From a virus, in the IMG/VR virus record IMGVR_UViG_3300020478_000003, positions 32,001 to 96,000 of that record: a stretch of 64,000 nt of DNA, one strand, 5' to 3'. Below the pieces are notes generated by a model. The model saw only the letters and a program-made list of their open reading frames with translations. It was not told the origin of the DNA and made no database searches. The position numbers and the translations under genes are program-made. Below, piece by piece: positions 4,023 to 37,962 of this stretch; the first letter of the stretch is position 1; each line of letters begins with the position of its first letter.

Positions 4023-7000
4023 ATGTCAGTAACACTATCAAACATTACTACTGCGGTAGATCCGTTTAACGATATACCCGATATTACATTTGACAGTATC
4101 GATGTATCGGCGTATACCGAAGAAGTAGAGATATATACCAATACGCCAGCGGTAATGATACCGGCTAAATTGAACGCTATGGCGGCTTCAATGAAAAACT
4201 GGTTAAATGATAATGTTTCTGCTCCTTTAGAAAATCAACAAAATACATTTAAAAACGAAGTTGTAGTTAGAACAAATACAGCAATGAATGCTGTGGAAAC
4301 TTATATGAACAATGAAGTTCAAAGTTTCGTAAATACAGTCTTTGTTCCTTGGGCAAACGATGCAGGATTAGTTCTCTCTAATCACGCCAACTTACAAGAA
4401 AGCAATGTAACCACTACATTAAATCAATTACAGGCTGATTATACAGCCCACGTAATATCTCAAGATGCTCTTATTGCTCAAGCCCTTGTAGATATGTTGG
4501 CTAGTCTTTCTCAATATACATCGGGTGCAGCCGATTCTGGTTATACCGTTCATCAAACAAACGAATTACTTGCCGATATTACAATGACTCGGCAGATTGA
4601 TTTTAGCGATTATTTGTATGACCACAATAATGATGTTATATTTGCCCACGAAGGTCCAAACATTACTCATCACATTAATTACAAACCTACTGACGGTACA
4701 GTTTTATCGTTTGGTGAGTCAATGCAAATTTTTGGTGAGCCTCGACCATTCATTCAACATTTAAGATTAGAAATAAGTCCAGAAGATACACCTTCAGTTA
4801 AGCAGATTAAAGCATATGATATTTTTAAGAACACTTCTGCTGGAGGTGTTCATTCATTCAGAGGTACTGGACACGAAGCAGATGGTGAGCCAGCTGTAGA
4901 ATTAACAATCTTGAACAATCTATCCGTTGCTGATACTGATAATCCAGAAATTATCCTGAGACGAGGATCTGAAGCCGCATTAATGTTTGGAGGAATTGAT
5001 AAGGGAGATTATGCCAAATTAGTAGAGATAGATGGTACCACAGTTTACAATAAAGGTGTTGTTGGTAACTATGCTCAAGATTATGACACGATATTATTTA
5101 AACCACATCAATCATACTGCCACGATGGCGCATCCGGAGTAACTGGATGGGGAGTCATAGCCGATGACCACGCAAGTGGTATCGATGGTGACGGAGGAGC
5201 TTATGATACTCCAACTAAATGCGAAGAATATGTAGATAGTTCCGTTGCTCTTTTAGATGATCTTTCCCGTTCTTATGAATATAATATTCCTGGAGAATCT
5301 TATGAATCTGCAATATCTGACGGACTGATTTATAAAGTTTATATCAATGATGATACTGGATTTATTGATTCTTACGCATACTCAATTGATGCTAATGGTA
5401 AAACAGGAACTGGAGCTATACTTACACCTTACTATGATGACGGAGTTTCAGATGTCACAATGACTTCTGGTGGAACTAAATATTCCACTAATACTAAAGC
5501 AAGAATATTTGACTTAGGTGCTGTAGATCAAACCGGTTCAGTCGAAACAAAAGCTACGGCTACTTTTACTCTTAAAGATGGTATGATAAGAGATGTTGGC
5601 TTTACTGATTACGGAGCAGGTTATACTGGATATTGGGAAGTAGATGTTGCCGCTGAAGTTGGTGGTGACGGACACACACATAAAGTTCATTTAACTCAAA
5701 CAGAAGTAAATACAATTATGGGTGGTGGAACTGTTGTTTCAACAACGGTTGATGCTGGTCATACACACGATCAAACTGTTGGTTGGAATGCTTTCAATCA
5801 ATCTTTTGAATTTATTTCTACCACAGGTGCTCACGTTCATCCATTAGAAGTTACCACTCACGTAGTTAATCCCACTTTATCAATTAATGTTGCTACTTCA
5901 ACCGGAGGTCTAGCCGAAGGAACAGTTTATCTTAAAGAAGATGATTCTATAGATTATGTAGTAATGACAAATGGCGGAGCCGATTATGATGCCGCTGATA
6001 CACTTACTATTAGTGGAGGAACTCCTTCAACTCCTGCAGTCTGTACGTTCACACTTGCAAACGGTGGAATTGCAGGCTTTTCAATGGTAGATCAAGGAAC
6101 TGGATATACCGATTCAACCGCAAAAACAGTTGCAGTTAATATTCAAAACGATGCGTTTTCGCCAAGTGTAATTACAGCAAATGTTGGTGATACAGTAACT
6201 TTTACAAATTTAGATATTCAACCACATACAGTTACACATTCGGGTGGAATGTTTGATTCATTAGATATTCCTCAGAATGCTGTATTCTCATACGTTGTTA
6301 CTAAAGCCACAGAATTAACTGACAAGTACGAACTTTACGATACAAATAATACACAAATTACCGCAACTCTTTGGGTTCGTGATAATCCTTGCTACATTGA
6401 TATGGTTACCTCTACTGGAGGTGGACTTTATGGAAAAGCTACGGTTAATGCTAGTGGAAACGTTACGAACATTGCTGTAGAGAGACCCGGAGAAGGTTAT
6501 CAAAATACTGATACAGTTAAAGTAATTGATATATCTGGCGCTGGAGAAGGTGCTTATGCTACTGTGGAGACAGACAGAAGTGTAGGATCAGTTATTATAA
6601 CTAACGGTGGATCTGGCTATGATCAAGAAACAGAAGTTTTTGCATATGATCCTACTGGATTTCCTGATGGTTCTGGTGGTACAATTTATGGTTCAGGAGC
6701 AATTCTGAAACCTACAATTAATACAGAATATCAGGCGGCATATTGTGCAGATCCTCAGTATACAGATCAAGCCGCTTGTGAAGCCGCTTTAAATGTTTGG
6801 TATCCTGCAATTGAACTTGGACAAATTACAGATATAAAAGTACAAGCTGGAGGATCAGGCTATAAAGATATCGAGTTCATAATTAATGATGTGACAGAAT
6901 CTGGATCAGGATGTATTTTAGCTCCAGATCAAAACAATGTAGTTACGGCAGTCAACTTTAGTTCACGAGGCGGACAAGGAACTGCTGGAGGAAACGCATA

Positions 7001-31110: not shown

Positions 31111-32313
31111 ATGTTTTTATCAGAAGAAATTAAAGATAAGTGGCAGCCAGTTATGGAGCACGAAGATCTCCCAAAGATCGATGATGCTACCAAACGTGCG
31201 ATAACACTTCGTCTTTTAGAAAATCAAGAAAAGGCTTTGCAAGAAGCCAACGTTACAGGTGCTAACGTAGACAATTGGGATCCAATTCTCATTTCGTTGG
31301 TACGTAGAACTATGCCTCAGTTAATGGCGTATGATACTATTGGAGTCCAGCCTATGTCCGGACCTACTGGTCTCATTTTCGCTATGAAATCACACTATAC
31401 TGGCGAAGCCAGCACAGGTGCTGAAGCATTAACAACTGCCGCTGGTCAACCCGATGTCGATTTCTCAGGGAATGACGGTGCAACTCCAGCCACTACTACT
31501 TACACTACGTCCGACGGCGAAGCGTTAGGTGGATTTGTTTCAGGTGGAGGAGACTTCAAAGAAATGTCTTTCTCAATCGAGAAGTCGAGCGTTACAGCCG
31601 CTACTCGTGCGTTGAAAGCTAAGTATTCTTTGGAACTTGCTCAAGACCTTAAGGCTATCCATGGATTGGATGCTGAGTCAGAATTAAGCAACATTTTGTC
31701 TGCTGAAATTCTTGCTGAGATCAATCGTGAAGTTATCGAGAAAATTCTTTCTCAAGCGACTGCAGGAGCAGCCGCTGGAACAACTACTGCCGGAACATTT
31801 GACGTTGCAGATTCCACTGATAACAGAGGAGCACGTTGGGGTGGTGAGCGTTACAAGTCACTATTGATTCAAATCAACCGTGAAGCTAACTTAATTGCTA
31901 AGAATACCGGCCGTGGTGCTGGTAACTGGTTGCTTGTAAGTCCAGATGTTGCATCTGCACTTGATATGGTTGCCGGATTAGCAGTTCCTAATATGGATGT
32001 TGGATCAGGAAATCCAATAGACCAGTCGAAAAGCGTTTTCGCTGGTACTCTCGGTGGAAAATACAAAGTTTTCATTGACCAATTTGCTTCCAGCGATAGT
32101 GTAACTGTCGGATATAAGGGATCAAATATGTACGATGCAGGGCTTTTCTACTGTCCATACGTACCGCTTCAATTGATGAAATCAATTGGTGAGGAAGACT
32201 TTCAGCCACGTTTGGGATTCAAGACTCGTTACGGTCTTACTCATAACCCATTCGCTTCTGGAAGTGATGCGGCTAATCCGTACTTCCGAAAGTTTACTGT
32301 TGCAAATCTGTAA
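31111..32313 (+). CDS. gp23: Major capsid protein gp23
   Basis: 'LISLVRR.MP.L.AYD..GVQPM.GPTGLIFAM', 'RALKA.YSLELAQDLKAIHGLDAE.EL', 'DAGLFYCPYVPL', 'FQP..GFKTRYG'. Confidence 0.98.
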   Translation: MFLSEEIKDKWQPVMEHEDLPKIDDATKRAITLRLLENQEKALQEANVTGANVDNWDPILISLVRRTMPQLMAYDTIGVQPMSGPTGLIFAMKSHYTGEASTGAEALTTAAGQPDVDFSGNDGATPATTTYTTSDGEALGGFVSGGGDFKEMSFSIEKSSVTAATRALKAKYSLELAQDLKAIHGLDAESELSNILSAEILAEINREVIEKILSQATAGAAAGTTTAGTFDVADSTDNRGARWGGERYKSLLIQINREANLIAKNTGRGAGNWLLVSPDVASALDMVAGLAVPNMDVGSGNPIDQSKSVFAGTLGGKYKVFIDQFASSDSVTVGYKGSNMYDAGLFYCPYVPLQLMKSIGEEDFQPRLGFKTRYGLTHNPFASGSDAANPYFRKFTVANL

Positions 32314-32992: not shown

Positions 32993-33400
32993 ATGAAAAT
33001 TGAAGAACTAGAAAAATTAGTAGAAAAAGACCTCTATATTGACGAAACAATCCTCGCCAAAGAGTCTCTTTTAACTCCTACCAAGCACAATAAGTATCTA
33101 AAGATGCTATTGAGGGAACGATTGAAGTTAAAGCAACTTCAAAATGAACTCAATAAAGTATCTCTAGGTAGGACTTGTTATTATAATGGTTCAGATCCTG
33201 ATCCTTATGAATATGTCCTCAAAGATCGAGAGGTCAAAGACTATGTTAAGGTAGATCCAGTTGTGATGGAAGCAGAAGCAAAGGTGGCTTTGCAAGACGA
33301 AACAGTTAAATATCTTGAAGAAGTCTGTAAAATGTTTGACAAACGTGGATTTGCTATAAAGAATGCAATCGACTTTATGAAATTTACCGAAGGCGGATGA
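32993..33400 (+). CDS. uvsY: Recombination mediator UvsY
   Basis: 'KDLYIDET.L..ESL..P..HNKYL', 'YYNG', 'RGFAIKNAIDF.KF..G'. Confidence 0.88.
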   Translation: MKIEELEKLVEKDLYIDETILAKESLLTPTKHNKYLKMLLRERLKLKQLQNELNKVSLGRTCYYNGSDPDPYEYVLKDREVKDYVKVDPVVMEAEAKVALQDETVKYLEEVCKMFDKRGFAIKNAIDFMKFTEGG

Positions 33401-33786
33401 GAGAATACTTAAAGAATTATTATGATGCTCCTTGGTCTGATAATAATATAGTCCACGAAACCGAAGATATAGTAGTATACAAAGATGGATTTCCTGTCAC
33501 AGAAGGTCATCTTTTATTTGTACCTAAAAAAGTTGAGCAAAGAAAAGACATTACACGTTGTTTTGAAATGGCTTATGAATGGGGTGTAAAAGGTATAATG
33601 GATTATAAATGGACAGCATTTAACTTGGGTATTAATAATGGAGAAGATGCTGGACAGACAGTAATGTGGACACACGTACATTTGATTCCACGAAGGAAAG
33701 GTGATCTAGGATCTTTTGAAAATGGTACTCCTTATGATCCCGCTGGCGGAATTAGAAATATAATTCCAGGAAAGGGAAAATATTGA
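33397..33786 (+). CDS. HIT-family nucleotide hydrolase
   Basis: 'D.FPVTEGHLLFVPK', 'FNLGINNG.DAGQTV.WTHVHLIPRR.GD'. Confidence 0.85.
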   Translation: MREYLKNYYDAPWSDNNIVHETEDIVVYKDGFPVTEGHLLFVPKKVEQRKDITRCFEMAYEWGVKGIMDYKWTAFNLGINNGEDAGQTVMWTHVHLIPRRKGDLGSFENGTPYDPAGGIRNIIPGKGKY

Positions 33787-35261
33787 AAGATATCATTGTA
33801 CATAAAAAGGATGATGTATATTTGAATATTGAATGTGAGGCTGGAATAGCCCACGATTTATCAGATTTCTTCACCTTTAGAGTCCCGGGCTATAGATTTA
33901 TGCCAGCATATCGAAATCGAGCGTGGGATGGAAAAATAAGACTGTTTAATGCGTTTGGTGGTGAATTATATGTAGGATTATTGCCATACGTGGTCGAATT
34001 CGCGGAGAGAAGATCATTAATACTTGAATATCCCACCTTGGTGCCTACTATCACGGATGAGGAAAATGTCAAGTTTTTTCGTGATTTAGACCCATATGTG
34101 GATGGTAAGAGCATAACTCCCTATGATTATCAGATGGATACCGTATTTTATGGTATCAATCATAAAAGGGCTTTAATGCTCTCGCCCACCAGTTCGGGTA
34201 AGTCATTAATGATCTATGCTTTAGTGGTTTGGTTACTGAAAACTATCGATAGAAAAATATTAATAATCGTGCCGACCACTTCGCTGGTTGAACAGTTATA
34301 TAAGGACTTTGAAGATTATACTACGGGATCATCTTGTGGCTATAACGCTGACCAGACTCACAGGATATACGCTGGAAAAGATAAAGATACGGATTGTCCT
34401 ATTGTAATTACTACGTGGCAATCTATATACAAACTGAAAAAGGATTGGTTTAAACAATTCGGTGCTGTAATCGGAGACGAAGCACATAATTTTAAAGCCA
34501 AATCACTTACTTCCATTCTGACCAAAATGACAGATTGTGAGTATAAATTTGGGTTTACGGGTACTCTAGACGGTACCCAAACACACAAGTTGGTCCTTGA
34601 AGGACTCTTTGGTCCTGTACATAATGTTACGACAAGTAAAGAGTTGATGGATGCTGATTTGATTGCTCAATTGCATATTGAAGCAATCACTTTGGGATAT
34701 ACAGACGAAGAAAAGAAACTTGTGAAAGGGATGTTATATGCGGATGAAATCGACTGGCTAGTAAAGTGTCAGAAAAGAAACGAATTTATCTGTACTCTAG
34801 CATTAACCAGGGATTCAAATACCCTAATTCTCTATCAATTTGTACAAAAGCACGGTGAAAAACTGTTTAAATATTTGAAAGAGAAAAGTCCAGACAGACC
34901 GGTGTTCTTTGTATCAGGTGAAATCAAGACGGAAGTCAGAGAGGAGATACGTGCAATTACGGAAAAATCTGAAAATGCTATCATCGTGGCTAGTTACGGC
35001 ACTTTTTCGACTGGTATTAATATTAGAAATCTTCATAATATTATTTTTAGCCACCCTGTCAAGTCTCGCATTAGAAACTTGCAGAGTGTTGGGCGAGGTC
35101 TACGAAAATGCGACAACAAAAGCAAAGCAACTCTTTTCGACATAAGCGATGATTTGAGTTGGAAAAAGCATAAAAATTATTCTCTCCGCCATTTTTTGGA
35201 GCGAGTGAAAATATACAATAGTGAAAAATTTGATTACAAACTAAGGAAAATACGATTATGA
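33783..35261 (+). CDS. uvsW: DNA helicase UvsW
   Basis: 'WDGKIRLF', SPTSSGKS, DEAH, GFTGTL, 'SYGTFSTGINI.NLHN', QSVGRGLR. Confidence 0.96.
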   Translation: MKDIIVHKKDDVYLNIECEAGIAHDLSDFFTFRVPGYRFMPAYRNRAWDGKIRLFNAFGGELYVGLLPYVVEFAERRSLILEYPTLVPTITDEENVKFFRDLDPYVDGKSITPYDYQMDTVFYGINHKRALMLSPTSSGKSLMIYALVVWLLKTIDRKILIIVPTTSLVEQLYKDFEDYTTGSSCGYNADQTHRIYAGKDKDTDCPIVITTWQSIYKLKKDWFKQFGAVIGDEAHNFKAKSLTSILTKMTDCEYKFGFTGTLDGTQTHKLVLEGLFGPVHNVTTSKELMDADLIAQLHIEAITLGYTDEEKKLVKGMLYADEIDWLVKCQKRNEFICTLALTRDSNTLILYQFVQKHGEKLFKYLKEKSPDRPVFFVSGEIKTEVREEIRAITEKSENAIIVASYGTFSTGINIRNLHNIIFSHPVKSRIRNLQSVGRGLRKCDNKSKATLFDISDDLSWKKHKNYSLRHFLERVKIYNSEKFDYKLRKIRL

Positions 35262-35575
35262 GCCAAGAATATCCATATAAAGGATCTGTTCATCTTAAAC
35301 ATACGGGACACGAATTGATCTGCGATGTTATCAAGGAAACTTCTGCGGGAGTATTACACATCAAAAATCCCTGCACTCTCCAGACAGTAGTTACAGGAGA
35401 TGGATCTAGTCAGATGGCTATGGTTCCATATCTGGTAACAGCCAAAGTGGATGAAGTAGGTATAAAATTGACGGATGTCCTTTTTGTTACTGAATGTAGA
35501 ACGGATGTAGCTGAACAACATACCCAAATGTTCAGTTCTGTCATTCTTCCAAAAGCTGGAGGATTTGAAATTTAA
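35258..35575 (+). CDS. Conserved small protein downstream of uvsW (possibly Sm-like fold)
   Basis: 'HLKHTGHELICDV......LHIKNP....' pattern; ATGA overlap with uvsW. Confidence 0.55.
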   Translation: MSQEYPYKGSVHLKHTGHELICDVIKETSAGVLHIKNPCTLQTVVTGDGSSQMAMVPYLVTAKVDEVGIKLTDVLFVTECRTDVAEQHTQMFSSVILPKAGGFEI

Positions 35576-35753
35576 CTTAATTAATGAAAGGAATACCATG
35601 GATGCGTGTATGACATTAGCAAATGAATTAATATCTATATCCTCCACCCATATGATCATCGGAGGAATTATCTTTTCGGGAATGTCATTTTGTTTAGGAG
35701 TTATTTTTGAAAAATCCTTTCAGGAAGAACTTGACAATAAAGCAAAAGTTTAG
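35565..35753 (+). CDS. Small membrane protein
   Basis: Likely start at ATG 35598 after AAGGA; hydrophobic segment MIIGGIIFSGMSFCLGVIF. Confidence 0.45.
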   Translation: MKFNLINERNTMDACMTLANELISISSTHMIIGGIIFSGMSFCLGVIFEKSFQEELDNKAKV

Positions 35754-35759
35754 TATAAT
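35731..35759 (+). promoter_or_regulatory. Sigma70-type promoter firing into a gene-free region
   Basis: Perfect TTGACA(35731)-N17-TATAAT(35754); no ORF follows for 530 nt. Confidence 0.85.
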
Positions 35760-35765
35760 ATAAAA

Positions 35766-36045
35766 ATTTGCATCAATGTTCGCCGTGGGACGAGACACGG
35801 ATTCCACCTAGATCAGAACCTAGGTAAGTAGCCTTTGGTGAAGTGAGCAGACTATAATACTCGACAAACGGAGTTGAGGTCTGTGTATTGATGTGCCGAT
35901 GCAAGCACTAAATATACGTAAAAATCGGGTCGGGACTCACCACATAATGGTATTGTCCACTAGAGACTTGTGAATCGACACAAGCGAGGCTATCAGGAAC
36001 CGTAACCTGGCTCTATAAGCTAGGATGTATCTTTTTACCGACTGT
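35766..36045 (+). ncRNA. Candidate structured non-coding RNA (~280 nt)
   Basis: GC-enriched, ORF-free, own promoter; helices CCGTG/CACGG, ACCTAG/CTAGGT, TAGCCT/AGGCTA, TGGTGA/TCACCA, GCAGAC/GTCTGT, CTTGTG/CACAAG, CAGG/CCTG, GTCGG/CCGAC. Confidence 0.55.
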
Positions 36046-36077
36046 ATAAATTCTCTTTAAATAAAGACTTTAAAAAA

Positions 36078-36194
36078 TGAAATTGCGAAAGGGCGAAGCC
36101 CTTGAGCATCCTGTTTCGAGCAAAGCGAGAAACAGGACTTAGATGTAACTTTTGACTCTCGGACCTACGGTCCTCGAGAGGCTTCGCCATTTCA
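36078..36194. other. Multi-hairpin (cloverleaf) element with GNA-type triloops; candidate replication origin or ssDNA signal
   Basis: Closing stem TGAAATTGCGAA/TTCGCCATTTCA enclosing AAGGGC-GAA-GCCCTT, TCCTGTTTC...GC-AAA-GC...GAAACAGGA and CTCTCG...GACC-TAC-GGTC...CGAGAG. Confidence 0.6.
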
Positions 36195-36221
36195 GGTTAT
36201 ATAGATATTTACATAAAAGAC

Positions 36222-36250
36222 TTGACTTATTGAATTTAAAAGAGTATAAT
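36222..36250 (+). promoter_or_regulatory. Sigma70-type promoter for the gp55 operon
   Basis: AAAAGAC-TTGACT-N17-TATAAT. Confidence 0.8.
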
Positions 36251-36292
36251 TAGAAGATATATTGTACTTAATATAATTTTGAAAAATATACT

Positions 36293-36913
36293 ATGGCTAA
36301 GAATGATCAAAAAGAACCAGTTGATTTAGATAACCCAACTCACTACATCAATAATAAGGATTTTTTACAGGCTCTTATAGATTATCAAAAAGAGATCAAA
36401 GAAGCCAAGAAAGCTGGTAAATCAAAACCTTATGTTAGTGATTACATTGCTATGTGTTTCCTACAGATAGCACAAAGACTTTCCTATAGACCAAACTTTA
36501 TAAACTACACGTATAAAGATGATATGATATCAGACGGTCTAGAAAATTGTCTGGCTTATATGCACAATTTCAATCCTTCGAAGAGCAAAAATCCTTTTGC
36601 TTATTTTACACAAATAATATACTACGCATTTTTACGAAGAATCCAGAAGGAGAAGAAACAACAATATATTAAGTATAAAGTATATTCCGAACATCAACAG
36701 GAGATTGAAGATGAACACGAAAAACTTTCTCCCGATTTCATCAATGAAAAGGGATCTGCCGATTTTCATATTCATATAAAAGAGTTTATAGACGAAATGG
36801 AACGAAAAGAGAAAGAGAAGAAACAGAAACGAGAACAGAAGAAAGCCGAGAGGGAAAGAAAAATACAAATAGAATCTACTCCTGAAAACAATCTTGAATT
36901 CTGGATGCAATGA
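36293..36913 (+). CDS. gp55: Late-transcription sigma factor gp55
   Basis: 'HYINNKDFL.AL', 'IA.RLSYRPNF.NYTY.DDMISDG.ENCL.Y.HNF.P.KS.NPFAYFTQI.YYAFLRRI.KEKKQ'. Confidence 0.96.
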   Translation: MAKNDQKEPVDLDNPTHYINNKDFLQALIDYQKEIKEAKKAGKSKPYVSDYIAMCFLQIAQRLSYRPNFINYTYKDDMISDGLENCLAYMHNFNPSKSKNPFAYFTQIIYYAFLRRIQKEKKQQYIKYKVYSEHQQEIEDEHEKLSPDFINEKGSADFHIHIKEFIDEMERKEKEKKQKREQKKAERERKIQIESTPENNLEFWMQ

Positions 36914-37962
36914 AAGTAGCAGTTATTACAGATACACATTTCGGTGCAAGATCAGATAGTCAAGCATTCTCTGATTATTTCTATAGGTTTTGGACGAATA
37001 CTTTTTTCCCGTATTTGAAAGAACACGACATAAAAACGATTATCCATTCGGGAGATTTGATGGATAGACGAAAATATGTCAATTATGATACCCTAGATCG
37101 GATGAGAAAAGAGTTTATTGGACCGATGATTGAAGACAAAATTGTGATGCACACAATTGTCGGAAATCACGATACGTATTTTAAGAATCACGCTCGGCTG
37201 AATTCAGTCGAACAGTTATTTGATATAGACGGAATTCCTGATAATGACACATTTCATACACCAGTTATCGGTTATTCTGAACCCACAGAACTAACATTAC
37301 CAGACGGATATAAAGTAGATTTGATACCTTGGATTGCTTCAGAAAATGAAGAGCAAATTCTTGATTTCATCAAAAAATCTAAGAATCAAATATGTTTTGG
37401 ACATTTTGATCTATCGGGATTTGAAATGATGAAAGGGGTAAAATCTATGTATCATTCAAGAAGTCCAGAATTCCTTAATAAATATGATACTGTATACTCT
37501 GGACATTTCCACACAAAATCAGACAATGGACACATTTATTATCTCGGTAATACGTATGAGATTACTTGGGCTGATTATAACGACCAAAGAGGGTTTCATA
37601 TTTTCGATACTGAAACTCTAGAATGTGATTTTATACCAAATCCGTATAAAATGCACAGTAAGATTATCTATGAGGATAAGCCAATCGATGTCGAGCCATA
37701 TGCTGACCAGATTGTCAAGATCATCGTGGATAAGAAAGAAGATATTGAACTATTCACTAATACTGTGGACGCATTGGAAAAACGGTGTGAAATGATCAAT
37801 ATCATTGAAGACCACGGTCTATTATCTTCTGGTCAAATTGAATTTGAATCAGAAGATACCATCACCACGTTGGAAAAATACGTGGATAATTTGAGTATAG
37901 ATAATACTAAACAAGTGAAAAAGATACTCCACGAAGTGTATGTGGAAGCATTATCAATATAG
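36910..37962 (+). CDS. gp47: Recombination endonuclease gp47 (Mre11/SbcD-like)
   Basis: DTHFG, GDLMDRR, GNHD, GHF, SGHFH phosphoesterase motifs. Confidence 0.95.
   Translation: MKVAVITDTHFGARSDSQAFSDYFYRFWTNTFFPYLKEHDIKTIIHSGDLMDRRKYVNYDTLDRMRKEFIGPMIEDKIVMHTIVGNHDTYFKNHARLNSVEQLFDIDGIPDNDTFHTPVIGYSEPTELTLPDGYKVDLIPWIASENEEQILDFIKKSKNQICFGHFDLSGFEMMKGVKSMYHSRSPEFLNKYDTVYSGHFHTKSDNGHIYYLGNTYEITWADYNDQRGFHIFDTETLECDFIPNPYKMHSKIIYEDKPIDVEPYADQIVKIIVDKKEDIELFTNTVDALEKRCEMINIIEDHGLLSSGQIEFESEDTITTLEKYVDNLSIDNTKQVKKILHEVYVEALSI

Follow-up and report, generated by a model that had tools for sequence, protein, structure and literature searches.

The window analysed here, a 64,000-nt stretch (positions 32,001 to 96,000) of the IMG/VR viral record IMGVR_UViG_3300020478_000003, contains a cluster of four small hairpins at 36084-36188, in the ~700 nt without a credible gene that precede gene 55 and constitute the largest gene-free stretch of the neighbourhood (Table 1). 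The source record (124 kb, 69% complete) is that of a marine T4-like phage whose nearest cultured relatives by UvsW are Methylophilales phage Melnitz and Pelagibacter phage Mosig (~52-55% amino-acid identity), and the cluster belongs to an uncultured group of such phages. The four hairpins follow a common plan of stem, tandem G.A mismatch, stem and GNA (or AAA) triloop. The left arms, L1 and L2, show this purine design on the plus strand, and the right arms, R2 and R1, show it only on the minus strand.

Table 1. Positions, in the window, of the four hairpins, the elements around them and the neighbouring genes.
Feature	Position	Strand	Description
Left arm L1	36084..36108	+	TGC / GA / AAGGGC / GAA / GCCCTT / GA / GCA; contains GCGAAGC at 36093
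Left arm L2	36109..36137	+	9-bp stem / GA / GC / AAA / GC / GA; contains 11-nt core GAGCAAAGCGA
Spacer between left and right arms	36138..36155		18 nt in the window
Right arm R2	36156..36178	-	Minus strand CTC / GA / GGACC / GTA / GGTCC / GA / GAG
Right arm R1	36180..36188	-	Minus strand GGC / GAA / GCC; plus strand GGC-TTC-GCC
ATTTCA	36189..36194		Complements TGAAAT at 36078-36083; outer inverted repeat round the cluster, partly conserved
AT-rich linker	36032..36083		Holds the AT tract 36044-36078 (5 G/C in 35 nt, 14% G+C)
Structured non-coding RNA domain	35766..36031	+	~270 nt; neighbouring, separate module
Sigma70-type promoter TTGACA-17-TATAAT	35731..35759	+	12/12; fires into the RNA, no predicted terminator before the cluster
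Gene 55 own promoter	36222..36250	+	Right-hand boundary of the element
uvsY	32993-33400		
HIT protein gene			Between uvsY and uvsW
uvsW	33783-35261		
phrog_527 protein gene	35258-35575		
Gene 55	36293-36913		Late sigma factor
gp47 and gp46 genes			Beyond gene 55

The symmetric 2x2 internal loop reads GA/GA on the plus strand in L1 and L2 and TC/TC, equivalent to GA/GA on the minus strand, in R2, whose plus strand is CTC / TC / GGACC / TAC / GGTCC / TC / GAG with TAC as the triloop. Tandem G.A pairs are preferred in a pyrimidine-GA-purine context, and this context surrounds them in all arms here. A script specific to the design identified L1, L2 and R2 as the only tandem-G.A hairpins of any size in the window, its remaining matches being minimal 2+2-bp chance matches. 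When the stretch 36070-36205 was folded, it proved unusually stable on the plus and minus strands both with RNA parameters (z -4.87 and -5.32, respectively) and with DNA parameters (z -4.80 and -4.71), with none of 200 dinucleotide shuffles being as stable. The original prediction had described an AT tract followed by a four-way junction with GNA triloops on the plus strand to the left and on the minus strand to the right. The AT tract and GCGAAGC are present, as are C-AAA-G (36121-36125), C-TAC-G (36165-36169) and C-TTC-G (36182-36186), and the mirror arrangement of the triloops is real, conserved and single-copy. The junction itself, proposed to be closed by TGAAATTGCGAA (36078-36089) and TTCGCCATTTCA (36183-36194), fared less well. 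These segments are complementary at 11 of 12 positions; the inner five pairs never covary and compete with the outer stem of L1, and complementarity of the flanks is weak or absent in several relatives. Since the closing stem is invariant, covariation provides no test of it. Two other candidates were discarded: a small open reading frame through the left arms (ATG at 36077), in which relatives shift frame and meet stops, and a C-GNA-G pair at record position 104365/104398, which sits in coding-like sequence.

To assess conservation, we used 80 viral loci fetched via gene 55 (designated by L numbers), in most of which the non-coding stretch is kept at the DNA level, both promoters included. For the four-hairpin structure in 17 relatives, 95.1% of cells were paired and 8 of the 27 pairs had changed on both sides, values that none of 500 shuffles reached, and slid controls were 29.5-44.9% paired. 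The inner stem of L1 changes from GGGC/GCCC to GGAC/GTCC in relatives, and its outer stem has a C-G pair replaced by U-A in L011, both sides having changed. Compensatory changes occur at three pairs in L2, where a second tandem G.A also substitutes for two U-A pairs in 9 of the 17 relatives. Three pairs of the inner stem of R2 likewise show compensatory changes, and among relatives its GGACC/GGTCC becomes GGCCC/GGGCC, GCCAC/GTGGC or ACCC/GGGT around a TC/TC internal loop that is invariant across all 17. R1 is enlarged in the L017-L027 group to GGC-GA-AC-G(A/G/T)A-GT-GA-GCC.

A search of relatives for triloops with compensatory stems, the check suggested in the original prediction, revealed conservation far past the close relatives. 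In far relatives the stems and spacer are replaced, and what is retained next to the RNA domain is an 11-nt core, GA-RC-GAA-GY-GA, together with its exact reverse complement, TC-RC-TTC-GY-TC, 80-210 nt beyond the left core; each core, left or right, sits in its own local stem. In many arms the motif is nested, as GA-NN-GA-NN-GAA-NN-GA-NN-GA, the right arms nesting the pyrimidine form on the plus strand. Core positions 3 and 9 covary inside each arm. The left and right core variants are mismatched in L014, L019 and L049/51, and in half of L042 too, and hence the right core is not kept merely for pairing with the left. In L014 the stems also differ by arm (CTGGTC/GACCAG on the left, CCAATC/GATTGG on the right). 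We therefore rejected a selected long-range duplex of the left and right cores, given the differing arm stems and the unmatched core variants of several lineages.

The polarity of the hairpins is fixed across the group. In 41 non-redundant loci, the 450 nt that follow the RNA domain (18,450 bases) held 47 plus-strand and 41 minus-strand hairpins, compared to 23 and 9, respectively, in the other 322,206 bases. Wherever both kinds with perfect stems were present (25 loci), every plus-strand hairpin preceded every minus-strand one. L031 and L034 have no hairpins under the strict rule, with looser variants visible. There are 23 distinct hairpin sequences of either kind, and the loop is GNA in 16 of the plus-strand ones (AAA in 5 others) and in 19 of the minus-strand ones. 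Read 5' to 3', each strand presents a well-folded purine version 5' of the AT-rich spacer and a poorly folding pyrimidine complement 3' of it. Because the 41 loci share kinship, these hairpins do not count as independent events, and the argument rests on the core being kept on both sides while its surroundings changed.

The core occurs only once in the 124-kb record. It is confined to the hairpin-cluster locus in four of five related records (50-99 kb), the fifth lacking an exact core, and was not found in five records without the element, which include the complete 141-kb genomes of Melnitz and Mosig. In a wider set of 80 T4-like loci the core was missing from 75, and the five that have it are contigs of the first gp55 set: L134, L135 and L137, which carry the RNA domain too, and L132/L133, which are the same contigs as L057/L058. 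Dispersed repeats of the PeSL or REP-BIME type were considered and dismissed, the motif being single-copy with one locus per record. No match to the intergenic stretch was obtained by blastn against 50,697 phage records, and a literature search over main texts without supplementary files gave no description of the hairpin cluster. The cluster and gene 55 are separated in L012, L022 and L025 by an additional ~100-amino-acid open reading frame (~2550-2900 in each locus), and the right arms of these loci look degenerate.

The sequences between these conserved parts are variable. The AT-rich linker differs in length and sequence, with the first plus-strand hairpin 21-104 nt past the RNA domain, and the proposal that its AT tract is a conserved unwinding element is not borne out. 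The spacer of relatives is AT-rich, 100-370 nt long and frequently contains tandem direct repeats. Head-to-tail repeats lie between the arms in 5 of 10 loci examined, and also in L057, whose ~370-nt spacer bears a repeat of 59 nt x 2.0. They map to 2724-2809 in L014, 2489-2542 in L013, 2743-2808 in L036, 2783-2822 in L040 and 664-779 in L057, with periods of 43, 32, 22, 20 and 59 nt respectively, and their sequences differ among lineages. An AT-rich repeat-bearing spacer is an origin-like trait; slippage in unconstrained AT-rich DNA would also yield repeats.

Between the promoter and the AT-rich linker, the RNA domain (43% G+C) has a mean column identity of 78%, compensatory changes at 21 of 60 predicted pairs and invariant plus-strand G-U pairs. 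It was found by nhmmer in 59 of 81 loci and, among 36 related loci compared for promoters, 35 have a plus-strand promoter scoring 10-12 of 12 upstream of it. The promoter and structured RNA that had been predicted upstream of the hairpins are therefore well founded, as a perfect, conserved sigma70-type promoter and a covarying RNA. Rfam 15 gave no match at E<=1 in 35000-37000 and none at gathering score in the whole window, ARAGORN detected no tRNA or tmRNA, and a 22-nt pattern from the domain matched 49 viral stretches and no species genome. The domain is more conserved than the flanking proteins. A 62-amino-acid open reading frame on the plus strand (35565-35753), without a Pfam or PHROG match, overlaps the -35 region of the RNA promoter. 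In the far relatives L013, L014, L028, L031, L040, L042, L047 and L048, a late-type TATAAATA box lies just before the RNA domain, alongside or replacing the sigma70-type promoter, and such boxes are also found at L119 ~5990 and L091 ~7380, so that late synthesis of the RNA, in addition to early synthesis, is possible. An invariant single-stranded segment of the domain, GTGAAGTGAGCAG (~35843-35855), shares the 8-mer GAAGTGAG with the AU-type core GAACGAAGTGAG, which could be chance or a common recognition element. Pairing of the invariant GAAGTGAG with the right-arm core was considered and gained no support from the few informative variants. A second structured-looking non-coding stretch lies at 51405-51618; nhmmer with the RNA-domain profile detected no similarity there (E<=10), so that a family tie to the RNA domain is unsupported by sequence.

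Although the RNA domain and the hairpin cluster usually co-occur, and stay together despite the gene inserted before gene 55 in L012, L022 and L025, each can exist without the other. In L119, the RNA domain is followed directly by the gene 55 promoter, without hairpins. In L057/L058, the cluster stands behind a different upstream gene, with neither an nhmmer match to the RNA domain nor a strong upstream promoter, and Rfam returned no matches for L057 150-1200. The idea that promoter, RNA and hairpins form one unit hence did not survive comparison with these loci. Between a DNA-methylase-like gene and the cluster, L057 carries at 230-560 another kind of non-coding sequence, ~330 nt long, richer in G+C and without an Rfam match.

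We examined which strand is read by means of folding, wobble pairs and promoters. With RNA parameters, under which tandem G.A is favoured, the right arms of L014 folded at -9.6 kcal/mol on the plus strand (z -0.49, equalled by 52 of 200 shuffles) compared to -17.1 kcal/mol on the minus strand (z -3.44, equalled by none of 200), and those of L054 gave z +0.14 on the plus strand; the left arms displayed the reverse strand pattern. Left arms lean to plus-strand wobbles, and in one L057 right arm an A.C on the plus strand corresponds to a G.T wobble on the minus strand. No conserved minus-strand promoter was found across the 36 loci, of which 5 have a sigma70-like match of 10 of 12 or better, at differing places, and none has a late-type TATAAATA box on that strand. 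The minus-strand hairpins are thus more likely to act as DNA than as RNA. Contigs from RNA libraries (four runs from four studies), of low depth and from relatives of the RNA domain, cover 35776-35998; some extend upstream of the predicted start and none spans 36079-36196, which is neutral with regard to transcription.

Among known systems, the closest counterpart is provided by ssiA and ssiB in oriV of the IncQ plasmid RSF1010, described as inverted repeats on complementary strands (PMC8567376). Each is reported to be a hairpin tipped by a C-GAA-G type mini-hairpin, with the primase RepB' starting just 3' of it, and to be used only after duplex opening, beside an AT-rich stretch and iterons (PMC8567376; PMC13037366). 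Going by these descriptions, the cluster shares with ssiA/ssiB hairpin signals inverted on complementary strands and present once per replicon (the polarity in 25 of 25 loci and the single copy described above), as well as the C-GAA-G type tip. The comparison concerns architecture, and there are differences: each strand of the cluster carries two hairpins, which have tandem G.A internal loops, and the replicon is a T4-like phage. Moreover, in the 124-kb, 69%-complete record no match was found to the RepB' primase (PF16793), for which the control genomes were silent too, and no RepC initiator or RepA helicase was found. C-GAA-G/GNA mini-hairpins are also reported in the G4 complementary-strand origin and N4 hairpin promoters as well as in ssiA (PMC13037366). 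The primase-dependent complementary-strand origins of G4, St-1 and alpha3 and the promoters of the N4 virion RNA polymerase resemble the cluster in that stable GNA or GNNA mini-hairpins in single-stranded DNA (ssDNA) serve as start signals; they differ from it in acting, as described, on one strand only and in having no tandem G.A internal loops as part of the description (PMC13037366). Unlike in N4, no match to the T7-type single-subunit RNA polymerase family was found in the record, the control being silent as well.

The T4 origins themselves are described as sharing no common motif (PMC3016281). In that account oriF (uvsY) and oriG (34) comprise ~100 bp with a MotA-dependent middle promoter, an adjacent downstream unwinding element and an R-loop, hairpins forming no part of them, while oriE has an early promoter and direct repeats, and UvsW dissolves origin R-loops (PMC3016281). 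Like oriF so described, the element has a promoter firing toward an AT-rich stretch in the uvsY/uvsW neighbourhood, with uvsW just upstream of the cluster, and like oriE it has an early promoter and, in relatives of the window, direct repeats. Its conserved part, by contrast with oriF and oriG, is the mirror-image hairpin cluster, which L057 retains without a strong upstream promoter. Nor is the AT-rich linker within ~100 bp of the promoter: the two are separated by ~270 nt of structured RNA, a layout unlike that of oriF. With ColE1 RNA II/RNA I it has in common a promoter-driven folded RNA upstream of a candidate start site. The ColE1-like design put forward in the original prediction found no backing, however, as the 36 loci lack a conserved antisense promoter and the RNA module and cluster are separable. 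ColE1-like antisense control is not supported either.

On sequence grounds, we tentatively favour the view that the cluster is a strand-specific ssDNA signal, closest to ssiA/ssiB of RSF1010, which would most likely serve replication initiation and may be a bidirectional origin. A core kept while its stems drift indicates a structure read in single-stranded form, and ssDNA of both strands is indicated when one structure recurs on opposite strands, always in the same polarity and at a single site per genome; the polarity is sensible solely on single strands of both DNA strands. In the scheme we envisage, transcription driven by the upstream early promoter, or else breathing in the AT-rich spacer, would first open the duplex, and L1/L2 would then fold on the plus strand and R2/R1 on the minus strand. 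The pair of hairpins on each strand would withstand coating by single-strand binding protein and could show where the phage primosome, made up of a T4-type helicase loader, a helicase and a primase, or some other initiator is to begin. On each strand, priming or helicase movement would start within the spacer or next to it, and would proceed in opposite directions on the two strands. Beyond the observed anatomy, strand polarity, conservation, single copy and upstream promoter, this scheme supposes a DNA-level action of the hairpins, a replication protein as the factor reading them and initiation at the cluster. It is possible, if doubtful, that the cluster represents an undescribed type of start site in marine T4-like phages, namely a mirror-image pair of ssDNA signals flanking an AT-rich, often iteron-bearing spacer, and the same doubt attaches to its being opened by early-promoter transcription and read by a T4-type primosome or an unknown initiator.

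Several observations weigh against this proposal. Along the 124-kb record, cumulative GC skew climbs steadily in step with gene direction, and the skew is positive and flat at the locus; it turns only at ~4 kb, where genes change strand, and in the last 2-kb interval at the record end, so that there is no signal at 68 kb, and the GC-skew check suggested in the original prediction showed no switch there. The 69%-complete record yielded no dedicated primase or initiator, nor any match to Toprim_2, for which the control was positive in 14 of 14 genomes. The right arms of the window, whose inner stems are longer than those of the far relatives, fold as RNA nearly equally on the two strands (-13.6 kcal/mol plus, -14.2 kcal/mol minus), and the case for strand specificity therefore rests on the relatives. 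With DNA nearest-neighbour parameters the energies in the window are almost equal on both strands, which are thus not distinguishable by DNA folding. Right-arm stems of relatives contain G.T and A.C in about equal numbers. Transcription from the upstream promoter almost certainly includes the left arms, for which an RNA role is therefore inseparable from a DNA role. In the window and its nearest relatives the spacer is just 18 nt long and lacks iteron-like repeats, and the polarity could partly reflect inheritance from one ancestral inverted duplication. Apart from these points, the sole switch of gene direction in the record (~4260-4300) is a 70-nt gap with back-to-back late-type boxes, TATTTATATAAATA, and no hairpin cluster.

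The main competing explanation, which we regard as rather unlikely, is that the cluster belongs to the neighbouring non-coding RNA, as its 3' module or as an insulator or structured 3' end for it. L1 and L2 would then be RNA hairpins transcribed from 35731, with the tandem G.A as a protein-binding or stabilising motif, and the right arms a long-range pairing partner, a terminator or a 3' protective structure before the gene 55 promoter. This would suit the conserved promoter with no predicted terminator between RNA domain and cluster, the presence of a core just downstream in every scanned locus with the RNA domain except L119 (L057/L058 having the core without the domain), and the cluster remaining with the RNA when a gene is inserted before gene 55. 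It also draws on the plus-strand G-U pairs of the left arms and outer helix, T-rich runs after the last right arm in several relatives, complementarity of one left and one right segment over 19-25 nt in L054 and L040, and the minimum free energy fold of the window, which pairs GGCGAAGCCCUUGAG with CUCGAGAGGCUUCGCC. However, an RNA made from one strand gives no reason for an exact reverse-complement core with nested GA periodicity in the right arms, which in far relatives fold no better than shuffles as plus-strand RNA, and in several lineages the left and right core variants do not match. Moreover, the RNA of L119 has no cluster, the cluster of L057 has no recognisable RNA or strong promoter, and there is no Rfam match.

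In bacteria, proteins are known to bind inverted pairs of hairpin-forming repeats, and a DNA-level role other than replication would fit a cluster situated among uvsY, uvsW, gp47 and gp46 and directly upstream of the gene 55 promoter, even in L057 with its different upstream neighbour. Such a role could be to insulate or regulate the gene 55 promoter, as an extruded multi-cruciform or protein-bound site, to act as a recombination hot spot beside the recombination genes, or to bind a topoisomerase or other architectural protein in the manner of inverted REP pairs (BIMEs). It nevertheless seems to us improbable: a cruciform extrudes both strands alike and hence does not account for the purine version being on the plus strand to the left and the minus strand to the right, the extra gene parts the cluster from gene 55 in L012, L022 and L025, and the motif is single-copy, unlike REP or PeSL cassettes. 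Alternatively, a hairpin-rich segment might long ago have undergone inverted duplication, the right half being a neutral relic with no present function. Left and right arms do resemble inverted duplicates: the right arm of L040 is the reverse complement of its left arm, and the stems of L014 differ by transitions. This reading we hold to be very improbable, given that the right-arm cores and internal-loop dinucleotides have been kept while stems and spacers were replaced many times, and that compensatory changes occur inside the right arms.

Our literature search found no report of an origin for marine T4-like phages. If the cluster does initiate replication, it would be the first origin in the T4 superfamily, T4 itself aside, that is both conserved and defined by sequence, and would extend to large double-stranded DNA phages the principle of the mini-hairpin as a start signal, as in G4, RSF1010 and N4. 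Being conserved, single-copy and defined in sequence, the element would then offer a clonable handle on the start of replication in abundant ocean phages. Even without a role as an origin, a hairpin design maintained on opposite strands across deep divergence implies a factor that reads these hairpins.

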